Shown here piece after piece: positions 18,001 through 24,000 of a DNA stretch of 49,521 nt (positions are counted from its first letter, which is position 1; the number at the start of each line of letters is the position of its first letter). The DNA is from Verrucomicrobiota bacterium (lineage in GTDB: Bacteria > Verrucomicrobiota > Verrucomicrobiia > Limisphaerales > CANJSG01). Position numbers: made by a program. Where the stretch lies: positions 1 through 49,521 of the forward strand of contig JBBQXJ010000032.1 in NCBI GenBank assembly GCA_038209745.1. The letters are read 5' to 3'.

Positions 18001-21000
18001 ATCCGCCGGCGAGCGCCGCAATGCCCTCCCGCTGTCATTTCTTTTGGGGCAGCAGGGCAAGGCGGGACTGTTTCCGCGATGGACCAAAGGCCCGGAATGC
18101 GCTCTAGTGGGTGGTGATCCCATGAACCTGCCTCCCATCATCCTCGCGTCCGCCTCCCCCCGGCGGGCCGAGTTGCTCCGGGAACTGGAGCTCGACTTCC
18201 AGATTGTCCCCAGCGACGCCGAAGAGGTCCACAACGAGGCACTCACCGCCACCGAGGTCGCCGAGATCAACTCCTACCGCAAGGCCCGCACCGTGGCCAA
18301 ACACGCGCCGGATTCGCTCGTCATCGGCATGGACACCCTGGTGGCGCTGGGCACCCGTCTCTTCAGCAAGCCGGCGTCGATGGAGGACGCCGAGCGAATG
18401 CTGGGCGAGCTCCAGGGACAAACCCACCACGTCGTGACCGGCGTGTGCCTGCTCCATCTCCGGCGGCACCGGCAACGGATATTCGCCGACCGCACCGAAG
18501 TCACCTTCCGTAGCCTTAATCCGGCGCAGATCCGCCGCTATCTGGAGAAGATCCGGCCACTGGACAAGGCCGGCGGCTACGCCATCCAGGACCACGGGGA
18601 GCTGGTCGTGGAAAGCATCGATGGCTCGTTCAGCAACGTGGTGGGACTGCCGTTGGAGCGGTTGCGGCAGGAACTGGAGCGGTTTGCGACGGGCTGAACC
18701 GAGGGCGGATCACGGCCACGAAAAAAACCGCCCTGCTGCCGGGCGGGTCTTGGCGAATGTCGGGCGCGGTTACTTGCCCTTCTTGGCGGTGGCAACCTTC
18801 GCCTTCGTGAGTATCTTCTTGCGCTTCAGGTAGGCGTCGCGGCGGCTGCGTTTCTGGACTTTGTTCGATTGCTTCATAGTTGTCTCTTTACAACGCGCGG
18901 AGGCTTCGTTGTGGTTCGGCAATATGATGAAGCGGATTTGGCGGTTCAATCTCCATTTTGTCGTCCTGGCGTTGGCGTTGGCGACTGCCTGCTCCAGTCC
19001 GGACGAACGCGCACGCAAAAAGCAGATCGCCAGCCTGCGAATCCACGTCGAGGGTCGGCGCAATATCATGGAGGCGGGACCCAAGGCGGTTTTCCGATCG
19101 GGGGAGCCGATCAACATCAACCAGAACGTCGTGGTCACCGACGGCAGCCTCGTCTCCGCCGAACTCGTGGACAACCCCGGCGGCTTCGCGATGAGGCTGA
19201 GCTTCGACCGTCATGGCCAACTCGCGCTCGAGACCGCCTCCATCGACAGTCGCGGGAAGCGACTCGCCATTTTTGTGGCCTGGACCTCGGGCCAAAAGGG
19301 GATCGCCGGTGAATCCCGCTGGCTGGCGGCGCCCATGATCTTCCAGAGAAACCCGTCGGGGGTCCTCGTCTTCACGCCCGATGTGTCGCGCGAAGAGGCC
19401 GAGTTGATCGTCCGCGGGTTGAACAACGCGGTGAAAAGGAACAAGGAATGAAGTCTGTCCCGTGTTTCTTGTTGGCTGTTCTCCTTGCTCTCGTTCCGGG
19501 CCGGGCCGCGGCTCAGGTCTTTCATCTTCCGACCGCGAACCTCGCCGTCCAGGAGCCCGGTCGTGAGACCGAGGCGTTCGCTCCCGTGCCTGGCCGTGAT
19601 TGGCGCAGCGGAATGTTCGGCTGCGTCCGCTCGGAGGGCTACCGCTTCCACGAGGGTCTCGACATCCGCAGCCTCCAGCACGACAAGCGCGGAGAGCCCA
19701 CCGACCCCGTGCTCGCCTCGGCGGACGGCACCGTGGTCTACATCAGCCGCAAGCCGGCGCTCTCGAACTACGGCAACTACGTCGTGGTCCAGCACATCGT
19801 CGAAGGCATTCCGGTCTATACGCTCTACGCGCATTTGAGCTCCATCCTGGAAACCTTGAAAGAGGGACAGCGGGTCCGGGCCGGCGAGCGGATCGCGATC
19901 ATGGGCCGGACCAGCAACACGCGGGAGAGGATCGGCAAGGATCGAGCCCACCTCCACTTCGAGATCACGCTCTTCCTGAACGAGGCCTTCATCCCTTGGT
20001 TCAAGAAGAACATGCCCGGCGCCCGCAACGACCATGGCATCTGGAACGGGCTCAACTTGTCGGGCATCGATCCGTTCGAGGTCTTCCAAGAGCAGAAACA
20101 GGAGGGCGCGAAGTTCAGCCTGGTCCGGTTCATCCGGACGCGACCGGAGCTGGGTCGGGTGGTGGTTCGCAAGAAGGACTTTCCCTTCATCAAACGGTAC
20201 GCCCCCTTGGTGGACCGGAATCCCGTCGCGGAGCGCGAAGGCGTCGCCGGCTGGGAAGTGGCCGTCACCTTCAATGGAACTCCCATCCGACTGACCCCGC
20301 GAGCCGAGTCCGAGCTGAAGTCGAAGTCGAAGTTTTCCGTGTCCTCGGTGAACGAGCCGGTGTTGGCGAAGTGTCCCTGCGGCAAGCTGCTCAAGAAGGC
20401 GGGATCTTCCTGGCAGTTGACCCGCACGGGCGAACTGCTCTTCGACAAGCTGGTCGATTGATCCCCGGACGGAGGGCTCGCTTGCCAACCGCCGCTCGCG
20501 ACCTGGTTTTGGCGTCATGATGTTTCCAGCCTGCGGGAACACCCTCTCGAACAGGGTCGCCGGGAACGTGGCAGGGTCTGGCTGAATGCCGGCGAATTCG
20601 TCGCGATCCAGGACGAACGCCTCTCCCAGAGCGCTCGTCAACCAGAACTGGTCCTGACGATCTCCGCGGCCGCCGCGGCCGTGCGGCTCCATTTGCGCGG
20701 TTGAAGAGCGGCCGGAGGTTGCCAACGCCGTCGGCCTTTGGTCCCCTTCCGGCGTGCCATTTCCCCGACTCGTCTCCGCCCTAGCGGCCTGCCTGCTGGT
20801 TCTCCATCTCCAAGCCCGGGGAACCAACGAAGCGGGCGCCTGGATCCGCCAGATCGCGACGACCGATGCCGACGTCCACGCGATCCCCTTCGGCTTCCTC
20901 ATCGAGTCCGTGACCGGTCATCGGGTGCTGGCGTTCGATCCGACCAATGCGGTGGACGCCGAGGTCTCGCGACGGGTAGGGCAGGCGCTCGAGCGGGTGC

Positions 21001-24000
21001 TGCTCCTGATGAACGGGACCAACAGCCCGTTGCGCGCGGTGAAGCGGATCAACGAGGCCAGCCGCTTCTTCGAGAATGCCATCCGGGACGAACTGAACAC
21101 CTTCGAGGGGATCGGCTGCACGGTGCCCGCGACCGAGGAAGGGCGGATGCAACGCAGCGGCTATCCCGATCTGCGGCTGGTCCACCGGGCGAGCGGAAGG
21201 GTCTTCTTCCTCGATCCAAAGCTTCGCGGTCCCAAGACCCGCGCGAGCTCGCTGCGGACCTTCTACTACGAGCCGCGCTTCGCCACCAACAAGGTGCTGG
21301 ACGATGCCGTGCACCTGTTGGTCGGCATCGAGCACGACGGCGCCGCGGCGGGAAAGTGGACGTTCACCCGTTGGGAACTGGTGGACCTGTCGTCGCTCAA
21401 GCTGGAGCTGAAGGCGGAATTCCAGGCTTCGAACCGCGATCTGTATCAGCCCGCGACCATCATCGGACGGAGTCCGGAGCCGGATGAAAACAAAACGGAC
21501 GCCCCGCAGCCGGAGCGTCCGTAGATCGGCGACCAGAAAACGGGTCGGCTACTTCTTGAAGATGCCCGACGCGGTCGTGGTGGCGTCGGCTCCGGCGCCC
21601 TTCGTGGCGTCCATCGCGGCCTGGATCTGCGCCTTGAGATCGCCGACGAGTTTGCTCTGGTCCGCGGAGAGGTTCAGATCCGAGAGACCTTTGAGCGAAG
21701 TGAGAGCGTCCTGGAACTTGCCATCCTTGAGCAGCGACCGGGCGGCGGAGACGGTTTCGGTGACCTTGATCTGGATCGCGGAGGAGGCCTGGCCGACAGC
21801 CGTTTTGGCGGAATCAACGGCCTTGCCGGCGGCGGTCATGGCGGTCTCAATCTTGGTCTTCAGCCCGTCGACCGTTTGCGCCTGTGCGGGGGTGAGGGAG
21901 ATCGAGGACAGCTTGTTGAGAGAGCCCATGGCGTCCAGGAGTTTGCCCCGACCGATAAAATTCTGGGCTTCCAGGATCGCGGAATCGACCTTCTTGGAAA
22001 CCTCGGCGGTGACCCCGGTCCCGGTCGATTTCACCGTGCCGGCGGCCGGATCGACCCTGCTCTTCGCCTCGGTGGCGGGCACGGTCGGCGTGGCGGAGGT
22101 GGGGGAGTCGCTCTGGCCACATCCGACCAGGATGATCGTGGCGGCGGTGAGGATGATGGGGAGGAAAGGGTGTTTGTTCTTGGAATTTTGGGTGTTCCAG
22201 CATTTGCCAAAACGTCGTGTTCTTAGCGGATGGAGTGCCGAGTGCAACCGGGTGGATCGGCCCCCGGCAGGGACGGGTGCGTTTCGCTCACCAGTGATTG
22301 GACACCGGCCCGGCCGGTCGGCACACTCCGTCGCGTATGCTCTTTGAGCGTCTCCACAGCCTCTACGGCACGGTCCAACAAACCCAGCGGCTCGCCCACA
22401 TCGTCCGGGTCTTCCTCAAACACGGCTACGACGATCTTGCCCGCGAGTTGCACCTCCCCTCTTCCGCTTGGCTTCCTTGGCGGCGCTTCCGGAGGAAGAA
22501 GCTGGAATCCGAGCGCCTGCCCCAGGAAGTCCGCCTCCGCCTCATGTGCGAGGAGCTCGGGCCGGCCTTCGTGAAGTTCGGCCAGTTCCTCGCCGCCCGC
22601 ACCCAGGCCCTGCCGCTGGAGTTCACCGTCGAGCTTTCCAAGCTCCATGACACCGTGGCTCCGCTCGAATACGCCTCGATCAAGGCGATCATCGAAGAGG
22701 AGATCGGCACGTCCTGCGAAGAGATCTTCGCCTTCATCGACGAGGAGCCCATCGGCAGCGCCTCCATCGCCCAGGTCCATTCCGCCACGCTCCTGACCGG
22801 CGAACCCGTCGTGATCAAGGTCCAGCGTCCCGGCATCCAGAAGATCGTCCGCGAAGATCTCCAGATCCTCCGTTTCTTCGCCCAGCGCGGCACGAGCATG
22901 ATCGAGGAATGGGGCGTCCTGGAGCCCGTCCGTTTGGTCGACGAGCTGGCCGAGAATCTGGAGAAGGAAATGGATTTCGAGGCCGAGGCCGGCCACATCG
23001 ACCGGTTCGCGCGGCAGTTCGCGGACGAACCCACCATCTACGTGCCCACGGTCTATCGGCGCTTCTCCACCAGCCGCGTCCTCGTCATGGAATACATCCA
23101 GGGCATCAAGGCGAAGGACCTTCTCCAATCGGGGATGGACCGCAAGCAGACCGGCGTCCGCATCGCCGATCTCCTGATGAAACAGGTCTTCGTCCACGGC
23201 TTCTTCCACGCGGATCCGCACCCAGGCAACGTGCAGGTGCTGGCGGACGGGCGGATCTGCTTCCTGGACTTCGGCCTGATGGGCTTCCTGAACCTGCGCA
23301 CCCGCGAAGCCTTCGCCGATCTCATCTACGGCATCGCCAAGCGCAACGAAAGCCGCGCCTCCTCCGCCCTGCTGAAGCTGTGCGAGGGCGACAACCTCGT
23401 CTCGCCGAACGTGCTGGAAACCGAGATGTCCGAGCTGATCCACCAGCACTTCCACGGCGCGATGGCGGAGCTCCAGTTCGACCGGCTCGTGACCCAGTTG
23501 CTCCAGTTGACCGCCAAACACCGGCTGCTGATTCCGGCCGATCTCGTGATGATGTTGAAGGCGTTCAGCCTCGTGGAGGCCTTTGTCCGGGAGCTGAATC
23601 CCGAACAACGTCTCGTCGAACAGGCGCAGCCGTTCTTGGAGCGCCTGATCAAGGACCGCTTCAAGCCTGAACGCATCTTCAACGACCTCGGAGGCTTCGC
23701 GGGCGAGATGGGAATCATGTTGGCCGAGCTCCCCGGTGAAGTCCGGCGCATCGCGCGGCAGCTCCAGTCCGGCAACGCCAAGGTGGTCTTCAAACACGAG
23801 GGCCTCGAGCCGTTGACCAACTCGCTCGAACGCACCACGAACCGGCTGGCCTTCGCGCTGGTCCTGGCCGCGCTGATCATCGGGTCGTCCCTCATCCTGC
23901 AATCACGGATTCCTCCGATGATCGGCGACGTGTCGATCATCGGCGTGCTCGGCTTCCTCTTCGCCGCGCTGATGGGCGTCTGGCTCATCATCTCCATGAT

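Follow-up and report, generated by a model that had tools for sequence, protein, structure and literature searches.

The gene studied here, carried by a Verrucomicrobiota bacterium of the order Limisphaerales (assembly GCA_038209745.1, contig JBBQXJ010000032.1, a window of 49,521 nucleotides covering the whole stretch analysed), encodes a homologue of the restriction endonuclease R.MjaV with a leader predicted to direct it out of the cytoplasm. Restriction enzymes are usually held to be cytoplasmic and methylase-linked. From sequence, we describe the gene family, fold, catalytic motif and leader of this nuclease, together with its gene neighbourhoods, co-occurrence and the accompanying depletion of GTAC sites. 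We propose, at about even confidence, that a Sec-exported, homodimeric, MjaV-derived endonuclease forms an extracytoplasmic GTAC restriction barrier, with self DNA spared by place, methylase and site loss. Of the independent evidence for an exported enzyme that restricts DNA at GTAC, the strongest is a leader-bearing PabI family that is mutually exclusive with the MjaV type.

An MjaV-family nuclease with an intact catalytic motif

The features of the gene are as follows.

20754..21524, + strand: gene of a predicted exported MjaV-family (PF27324) PD-(D/E)xK nuclease (ORF, profile and fold evidence)
20754..20816, + strand: signal peptide of Sec/SPase I type, predicted for residues 1-21 (rule-based, not from a trained predictor)
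20880..21473, + strand: nuclease domain, about residues 43-240 (hhalign, dimer model)
21165..21221, + strand: catalytic motif P138-D139 ... D154-P155-K156 (alignment A2)

The ORF opens with GTG and encodes 256 residues, at GC 0.656 and GC3 0.84, values similar to those of its neighbours. The product matches the PADLOC REase_II profile PDLC03511 in a profile search (E 1.5e-18, residues 31-237), and among 14 control genomes that profile matched in Methanocaldococcus jannaschii only. PF27324, named MjaV in Pfam 38.1 (Atlas score 0.98), was present in 120/120 homologues among the matches listed. The first-pass annotation as an MjaV-family restriction-nuclease homologue is thus borne out. Local Pfam and NCBIfam searches returned no match for the protein, nor did a sequence search of the PDB.

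The nuclease domain is co-linear with leaderless, methylase-linked enzymes of the family over 200 columns (hhalign probability 99.9). Its DPK-type motif aligns to the PD...DCK of these canonical relatives, and catalytic and flanking motifs are common to both over that length. P138, D139, D154 and K156 are invariant in all 35 rows of alignment A2, on which the contig scan was based; the broad alignment A1 held no sufficiently conserved stretch. GYPD (residues 136-139) and DPK (154-156) are intact in 119/121 close sequences, as expected from the PD..DPK site reported earlier; a few members (G019, P0212, P0216) have decayed motifs. Homologues end near residue 240, and the last codons of this ORF are unconserved. 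The nuclease is likely to be enzymatically active, and it probably recognizes GTAC.

In the AlphaFold2 model (pLDDT 90.2), VIA-align placed R.SwaI first (Z 11.4, rmsd 3.4, 146 aligned residues), followed by EcoRV (Z 8.2), BglI (6.8) and SfiI (6.4). Foldseek ranked EcoRV, SwaI and BglI best, with EcoRV at E 1.7e-3 and the others weaker. The EcoRV-like fold claimed before therefore stands, at a weaker Foldseek E-value than claimed. The nuclease is predicted to work as a homodimer. The dimer model scored 0.76 against 0.01 for the best control, with at least 91% of contacts shared between runs and pLDDT of at least 84. Of the solved pairs 20/30 reached the mark, as did 1/23 single chains, and likeness to solved restriction-enzyme dimers may explain the pass.

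MjaV-type nucleases occur in 35/151 genomes of the order, consistent with the 17/70 counted earlier, and leader-bearing homologues extend beyond it across the class Verrucomicrobiia. On a quick-search tree the DPK group (77 rows) has a support of 90, and the leader-bearing ExK group lies apart from it. The leader requires 9 changes on this tree, at least 4 of them forced, with several leaderless rows truncated and one (L027) mis-anchored.

A conserved leader

The leader has a basic n-region and a hydrophobic core, with cleavage predicted after Ala21 from close homologues. Under a rule requiring an uncharged hydrophobic 10-mer ahead of the domain, leaders were found in 114/121 close homologues (a basic n-region is present in 111 and x-x-A in 109) versus 0/119 leaderless canonical relatives. 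The signal peptide noted at first is upheld by this rule-based test, and export, put forward as a Limisphaerales trait, is a lineage trait reaching across Verrucomicrobiia. We found no twin-arginine motif in the 121 close sequences and no lipobox in the leader of this nuclease. Among full-length distant representatives, 64/72 carry a leader, five of them with a lipobox, suggesting that what is conserved is the location and not the sequence. Export of the nuclease from the cytoplasm is thus very likely on the evidence of its leader.

Alternatively, an uncleaved N-terminal anchor or an internal start could leave a restriction enzyme that faces the cytoplasm, where an unlinked methylase or site loss would give protection. 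In some distant members the N-terminus is long and resembles an anchor, membrane-localised cytoplasmic defence nucleases are known (SNIPE, in excerpts of PMC12904381), and cytoplasmic restriction predicts strong GTAC depletion and methylase co-occurrence, as described below. Against this stand the short leaders with their basic n-regions and x-x-A motifs, the lipoboxes of distant representatives, and three MjaV carriers (G231, G450, G315) that have many GTAC sites, with neither a detected methylase nor strong depletion. We consider a cytoplasm-facing enzyme improbable.

A housekeeping locus without an adjacent methylase

Three further features flank or overlap the nuclease gene.

19448..20461, + strand: upstream neighbour, an M23 peptidase gene, not a methylase (domain annotation)
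21549..22247, - strand: downstream convergent neighbour, a lipoprotein-like ORF, not a methylase (ORF and domain annotation)
21495..21522, - strand: terminator-like hairpin of the convergent gene, overlapping the last codons of the nuclease ORF

The hairpin scan found 2 where 1.0 is expected by chance, and a search for a sigma-70-type promoter gave no match. Three congeners without the nuclease also carry the M23 peptidase gene. No methylase adjoins the nuclease gene in the window, in agreement with the first reading. An adjacent methylase was found in 0/108 loci of the DPK type (78 of them unique and with at least 1.5 kb on each side) versus 69/80 canonical loci.

Neighbourhoods, earlier described as differing among loci, are stable within lineages. 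The gene sits among housekeeping genes and outside defence islands, a setting that counts against a restriction barrier. Across 124 loci, ribBA lies downstream in 52, deoA upstream in 35 and deoB in 28. Of the competence genes named previously (ComEC, DprA and ComF-like), ComEC and DprA were found in this genome.

These surroundings could indicate scavenging, in which the exported nuclease would break environmental DNA for food and spare kin DNA with methylated GTAC or none. In Chthoniobacterales-type loci, genes for an aldehyde dehydrogenase, a phosphopentomutase-like protein and a pyrimidine-nucleoside phosphorylase precede the nuclease on one strand; in one locus (L060) the nuclease start overlaps the deoA stop. 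The chromosomal position is stable, and no relatives of the nuclease were found in the viral contigs, plasmids or phages searched. However, the downstream ribBA is more constant, and in other lineages the nuclease follows metH (10 loci) or a methylase (7 loci), so that the association with deo genes could stem from a single old insertion. A deoB search of this genome gave no match. Moreover, a four-base cutter yields fragments, not nucleotides, and scavenging accounts poorly for site loss. Taken together, we regard it as unlikely, albeit the least so of the alternatives.

An unlinked methyltransferase

Although the locus lacks a methylase, the label methylase-free, first given to the nuclease, does not hold for the genome: contig C59 encodes an N4/N6 methyltransferase (24784-25965) that is 57-62% identical to enzymes directly upstream of sister-clade nucleases. 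The statement that neighbours at sister loci match no methylase of this genome accordingly fails. Members of the C59 family lie directly upstream of leader-bearing nucleases in seven genomes (G004, G052, G070, G075, G122, G123, G124) and of a leaderless canonical nuclease in G110. Across the order, the family occurs in 29/35 MjaV carriers versus 52/116 non-carriers. The idea that export acts instead of a methylase is therefore not sustained.

NCBIfam and Atlas names for the C59 enzyme are generic. No relatives were found in viral contigs, and three plasmid records matched at 40-42%. Five orphan GtaC m4C methylases are listed in table S3 of PMC4752239. An attempt to link the specificity of the C59 enzyme to a characterised GTAC enzyme failed. 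The C59 enzyme probably methylates GTAC.

A leader-bearing PabI family in relatives

The three congeneric genomes that we searched lack the nuclease and instead encode a leader-bearing PabI-family GTAC glycosylase. This protein (P0398) matches PF09522 with 53 bits over a cut-off of 25, and resembles R.CcoLI (E 1e-26) and R.PabI (E 5e-14). In the set covered, 120 database homologues and two loci, a leader is present in 115/119 of the homologues. EWQIGY is found in 117/120 and HNxD in 119/120. The catalytic Tyr, His and Asp named in PMC7806768, together with the recognition residues of R.CcoLI, are invariant in 25/25 proteins. No M.PabI-type m6A methylase adjoins the PabI gene in two short loci of 3.2 and 1.9 kb. 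PabI genes occur in 13/151 genomes of the order, and none of these is among the 35 MjaV carriers. This exclusion has p 0.027 on its own, a value for which kin are not independent.

The exported enzymes might also be interbacterial weapons, leaving the cell via vesicles or contact and entering neighbours, with immunity conferred by methylated or absent GTAC. A weapon accounts for near-total GTAC loss despite export, and a bacteriocin-like role has been proposed for the PabI family (PMC10273834 section 5.1), whose members studied here have leaders. Nevertheless, the proteins are single-domain, about 240-270 residues long, with no receptor-binding or translocation domain among the matches listed, and no immunity or secretion genes are conserved nearby. 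A weapon is hence improbable.

Depletion of GTAC sites

M.MjaV methylates GTAC to m4C (PMC11033074; PMC4752239 table S3). Of all 256 tetramers, GTAC is the rarest in this genome (observed/expected 0.11, 595 sites). Using the CGTACC/CCATGC ratio as the measure of site loss across genomes, a class-level sample of 69 genomes gave a median of 0.093 in 17 MjaV carriers versus 0.289 in 50 non-carriers; the C59-family methylase or a ratio below 0.05 was found in 14/17 and 9/50, respectively. Within one family the ratio is lower in 9 carriers than in 12 non-carriers (p 7e-4). Across the order, however, carriers are not GTAC-poorer (median 0.214 versus 0.219, p 0.19; 20-kb samples, p 0.70). An earlier doubt about GTAC poverty thus holds for the order median and fails for this genome. 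In the 47 genomes with the C59-family methylase alone the ratio is 0.167, half of the 0.337 in the 56 genomes that carry neither gene.

Several genomes have lost the site almost completely. Ten of the 13 PabI carriers are nearly GTAC-free; the other three (G049, G120, G135) are not depleted, at ratios of 0.20, 0.22 and 0.11. MjaV carriers without PabI can be as poor, with 1, 0, 6 and 10 CGTACC sites in G393, G520, G459 and G309. CGTACC occurs once in the 4.6 Mb of G116 and not at all in the 2.7 Mb of G520. A hidden PabI gene in GTAC-free MjaV carriers was unsupported in the 32 genomes searched. Four GTAC-free genomes (G435, G249, G273, G294) have neither enzyme detected, indicating that site depletion is not confined to carriers of the two families; a search of these four for a third enzyme identified none. 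Near-total loss is hard to account for under the barrier model if the enzyme never meets its own DNA.

The three congeners have 11-20 CGTACC sites versus 141 in this genome. As congeners without the nuclease are even poorer, we rejected the nuclease as the sole cause of depletion here. Together with the missing order-level effect, this suggests that the depletion could go back to an ancestor that carried PabI.

The same data raise the possibility that the nuclease is an exported DNA-binding protein that is domesticated, non-specific or inactive, and the depletion a legacy of other enzymes. The order-level comparison, the GTAC-free genomes without the gene and the decayed motifs agree with it. 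In contrast, the motifs common with canonical enzymes, the within-family depletion and the methylase linkage kept in the sister clade argue against it, making it the least probable of the alternatives.

A putative model for extracytoplasmic restriction

The evidence on predicted export, co-occurrence and site loss enables us to return to the restriction barrier proposed above. An MjaV-type restriction enzyme ancestor would have given rise to a Sec-exported, homodimeric, GTAC-specific endonuclease whose place of action is the periplasm or the cell surface. We infer that incoming DNA is its target: unmodified double-stranded foreign DNA, such as entering phage genomes and transforming or conjugated DNA, would be cut before reaching the cytoplasm. 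Own DNA would be spared by compartment, backed by the unlinked m4C-type methyltransferase of C59 and by GTAC depletion. In the congeners, the exported PabI-family glycosylase would fill the same role, relying on near-total site loss. That defence is the purpose of the exported nuclease seems to us evenly balanced.

More tentatively, and at somewhat less than even confidence, extracytoplasmic restriction in Verrucomicrobiota may have recruited at least two unrelated folds, possibly with a third in the GTAC-free genomes that have neither enzyme, which were independently exported and replace one another. Self would be marked by an erased site or a detached methylase rather than a linked modification gene, as a phylum-wide DNA password read outside the cytoplasm. 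If so, hundreds of leader-bearing members from two unrelated families with one site would mean that restriction was relocated to the envelope on more than one occasion, which would explain how megabase genomes came to lose a four-base word almost completely. The extent to which site avoidance can replace methylation would become testable. The model further implies that transformation of these bacteria, soil and freshwater organisms that are difficult to manipulate, calls for DNA that is methylated or lacks GTAC. It could also yield restriction enzymes possibly producible without a protecting methylase.

Comparison with known systems

Secreted non-specific DNases such as EndA/Dns and NucA resemble the nuclease in having a signal peptide and extracellular or incoming DNA as substrate; unlike it, they have other folds and no site specificity, methylase link or site avoidance. 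Closest is the type IIP pair R.MjaV/M.MjaV (MJ1500/MJ1498; GTAC, m4C), whose activity is demonstrated according to excerpts of PMC2615612. R.MjaV and the nuclease share the family profile, the PD-(D/E)xK core, an EcoRV/SwaI-like fold, a predicted dimer and GTAC-depleted host genomes, and the sister clade of the nuclease keeps the upstream N4/N6 methylase. By contrast, the nuclease has an N-terminal export signal, DPK rather than DCK/ECK/EVK, a stable housekeeping locus and no adjacent methylase in its clade. It therefore departs from type IIP systems in both the adjacent methylase and, by the rule-based leader assignment, the leaderless cytoplasmic enzyme.

Solitary type II restriction endonucleases (PMC3488263) likewise lack an adjacent methylase and can be protected by a distant one; the main text of that paper does not contain the words signal, periplasm, secret or Verrucomicrob. 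In SNIPE, Zorya and Kiwa (PMC12904381; see also PMC13190303), self and non-self are also told apart by place at the envelope, but these systems act on the cytoplasmic side, SNIPE being guided by the tape-measure protein, whereas the nuclease is predicted to lie outside the inner membrane and to be sequence-specific. The PabI family (R.PabI, R.CcoLI, R.HpyAXII; PF09522) differs in its unrelated HALFPIPE fold and chemistry; the members described have an m6A methylase as partner, and the known ones are said to be without secretion features (PMC10273834 section 5.1). It nevertheless resembles the nuclease in its target, GTAC, and in hosts that avoid this site (PMC10273834 section 4.2), and an exported member takes its place in the congeners where this genome has the MjaV type.

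Results

The MjaV-family nuclease gene is present in one copy in the genome under study (G000), and its base composition resembles that of the neighbouring genes.

20754–21524, + strand: MjaV-family nuclease gene (256 aa, GTG start)

The protein matches the PADLOC profile REase_II PDLC03511 (E 1.5e-18), which among 14 control genomes matched that of M. jannaschii alone. PF27324, named MjaV in the Atlas, was found on 120/120 homologues examined (the best 120 of 1926). The predicted structure (pLDDT 90.2) is closest in fold to R.SwaI (Z 11.4), followed by EcoRV (8.2), BglI (6.8) and SfiI (6.4). 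The family divides into several groups, and a profile of the query's clade (the DPK group, catalytic D154-P155-K156) aligned with the leaderless relatives over 200 columns at probability 99.9, the motifs RxNE, GYPD, (D/E)xK, RTFY and EFxASN being common to both; that the protein is decayed or non-specific appears very improbable. Elsewhere, a decayed member in G019 (L274:615–1400) has lost the PD motif and kept its leader, and C-terminal remnants occur in G029 (L235:9832–10119) and G332 (L128:1435–1662), the latter behind an intact methylase. Cys122 (21117–21119; window 21045–21140), the sole cysteine of the predicted mature protein, is invariant in 35/35 sequences of the DPK group; the canonical group lacks it.

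A homodimer model of residues 24–242 scored 0.76 versus 0.01 for the best control, with contact agreement of at least 91% and pLDDT of at least 84; the score mark was passed by 20/30 solved pairs and 1/23 single chains, and resemblance to solved dimers may contribute to the score.

Export was predicted by a rule, not a trained predictor: an uncharged hydrophobic 10-mer ahead of the domain, preceded by a basic residue and followed by x-x-A. Among 121 sequences (the query and its 120 best matches), the core was found in 114, the basic residue in 111 and x-x-A in 109; most of the seven failing sequences start within the leader or domain. The rule was satisfied in 0/119 leaderless relatives (1/120 was left out, its anchor motif missing), which start about 18 residues later. 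Among distant representatives, 72 of the 150 listed were full length, and 64 of these 72 bear a leader, five with a lipobox. We consider a cytoplasm-facing enzyme improbable.

The G000 gene is flanked by genes for an M23 peptidase and a lipoprotein-like protein, and searches of viral contigs, plasmids and phages found no signs of mobility. Among 124 loci, which represent few independent events, ribBA follows the gene in 52, and the gene itself follows deoA in 35, metH in 10 and a methylase in seven (neighbour names verified on locus L060). In Chthoniobacterales, L060:1349–6889 and 34 like loci carry aldehyde dehydrogenase, deoB, deoA, exported-type nuclease and ribBA genes on one strand. This deoB–deoA linkage speaks for scavenging of DNA by the exported nuclease, a reading we nevertheless find unlikely. 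Another window feature may encode a protein resembling error-prone DnaE2.

29409–32600, − strand: long ORF carrying PHP and DnaE-like motifs

For the canonical leaderless enzymes, a profile derived from 80 metagenome loci places an N4/N6 methylase upstream in 69 of these same loci, and a separate motif scan does so in 55. Of the 11 loci that the profile left unmatched, 8 have at most 505 bp of upstream sequence. The first-pass annotation had called the nuclease methylase-free. This holds for the locus, since the DPK group has an adjacent methylase in 0/108 loci (of which 100 are unique and 78 extend 1.5 kb or more on both sides) by a scan without positive control for C5 and type I/III methylases, but not for the genome, which encodes an unlinked methylase of a nuclease-linked family.

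G000:C59:24784–25965, − strand: orphan alpha-class N4/N6 methyltransferase (PDLC03325), unlinked to the nuclease

This second methylase family lies directly upstream of the nuclease in the leader-bearing ExK sister group of the same order (G004, G052, G070, G075, G122, G123 and G124), is disrupted 3 kb upstream in G085, and is located away from the nuclease in G061, G063 and G128; in G110 it precedes a leaderless nuclease as an ordinary pair. The C59 methylase is 57–62% identical to the nuclease-linked ones versus 22–27% to the canonical methylase family, and it is probably a GTAC m4C enzyme. C59-type methylases occur in 81/151 order genomes (29/35 nuclease carriers versus 52/116 others) and in 11/19 carriers versus 11/382 others of the phylum sample, where the G332 fragment was scored as non-carrier; in both counts kin are not independent. 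At L275:3307–4973 (G085:C49), a partial C59-type methylase, with a second methylase gene on the opposite strand, lies 2–3 kb upstream of a leader-bearing nuclease. Leaderless family members in ordinary methylase–nuclease pairs occur in the same order at L245 (G110:C63:13184–14949) and L276 (G105:C67). The C59-type gene (G000:C59:24784–25965; L129:601–1785) adjoins a halogenase-like oxidoreductase.

MjaV is described as active (PMC2615612) and the M.MjaV product as GTAm4C (PMC11033074; PMC4752239 table S3). GTAC is the rarest tetramer in G000 (o/e 0.11; 595 sites, even across contigs). CTAG is second rarest (o/e 0.24), and GTGCAC, TACGTA, CTCGAG and CCGCGG are depleted hexamers (0.38–0.44). We compared genome-wide counts of CGTACC with its reverse, CCATGC, in 151 order genomes and in 80 chosen from the phylum, of which the 69 belonging to the same class entered the analysis and 11 from other classes did not. 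The G000 ratio of 0.044 ranks 15 of 151. Within the order, MjaV carriers had a median of 0.214 versus 0.219 for genomes with neither nuclease family (p 0.19), and genomes with only a C59-type methylase 0.167 versus 0.337 for those with neither (p 1e-5). In the class sample, 17 carriers stood at 0.093 versus 0.289 for 50 non-carriers; inside one family (f89), 9 carriers versus 12 non-carriers gave p 7e-4. Five of the eight class-sample carriers without a C59-type methylase fell below 0.05 and three did not.

Three congeners (85–93% complete) gave no nuclease match; all retain the M23 neighbour, are nearly GTAC-free and carry a PabI-family gene.

L352:1489–2292 (G095:C33), − strand: PabI-family restriction glycosylase with signal peptide (rule-based leader)
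L353:143–1039 (G012:C174), − strand: PabI-family restriction glycosylase with signal peptide (rule-based leader)

No methylase lies beside the gene in these two loci (3.2 and 1.9 kb read). The protein matches R.CcoLI at E 1e-26 and R.PabI at 5e-14. It retains the catalytic Tyr, His and Asp as well as the residues that PMC7806768 assigns to recognition, and these positions are invariant in 25/25. By the same kind of rule, 115/119 homologues (of 512 in all) bear a leader; PabI genes of seven phylum-sample genomes score as more canonical. PabI occurs in 13/151 order genomes, none of them among the 35 that carry MjaV (an absence of shared genomes has a chance probability of 0.027), and was not matched in G000 (92% complete). 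Ten of the 13 fall below 0.015, making up 10 of the 12 such order genomes; G049, G120 and G135 do not follow this near-loss. GTAC-free genomes with neither enzyme detected (G435, G249, G273 and G294; 0–5 CGTACC sites) may hold a third GTAC-targeting enzyme. Neither was detected in further low-CGTACC genomes, G041, G112, G014, G471 and G210.

Discussion

We propose, with the balance evenly poised, that these bacteria restrict GTAC outside the cytoplasm. The nuclease would be exported by Sec, dimerise outside the inner membrane and cleave unmodified GTAC in incoming DNA; own DNA would be spared by compartment and the detached methylase, and GTAC loss would serve as self-protection where a suitable methylase is missing. 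Four of five genomes with both PabI and a C59-type methylase lie below 0.015. Protection from PabI needs m6A, not m4C, according to PMC4615327 and PMC10273834, which would explain why PabI carriers erase GTAC despite that methylase. Use of the exported nuclease as an interbacterial weapon seems to us improbable.

Our literature search, which covered neither subscription journals nor REBASE notes, found no published report of signal-peptide-bearing MjaV or PabI enzymes or of GTAC avoidance in Verrucomicrobiota. Restriction enzymes freed by osmotic shock and exocytoplasmic endonucleases of Streptomyces have reportedly been described in older work. That extracytoplasmic GTAC restriction constitutes a distinct system is a tentative reading, somewhat short of an even prospect. 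MjaV has been placed in a four-member PD-(D/E)XK subfamily (PMC2441816), and a term search of PMC3488263 found export unmentioned. The PabI family, as described in PMC10273834, lacks secretion features, whereas the members found here bear leaders.
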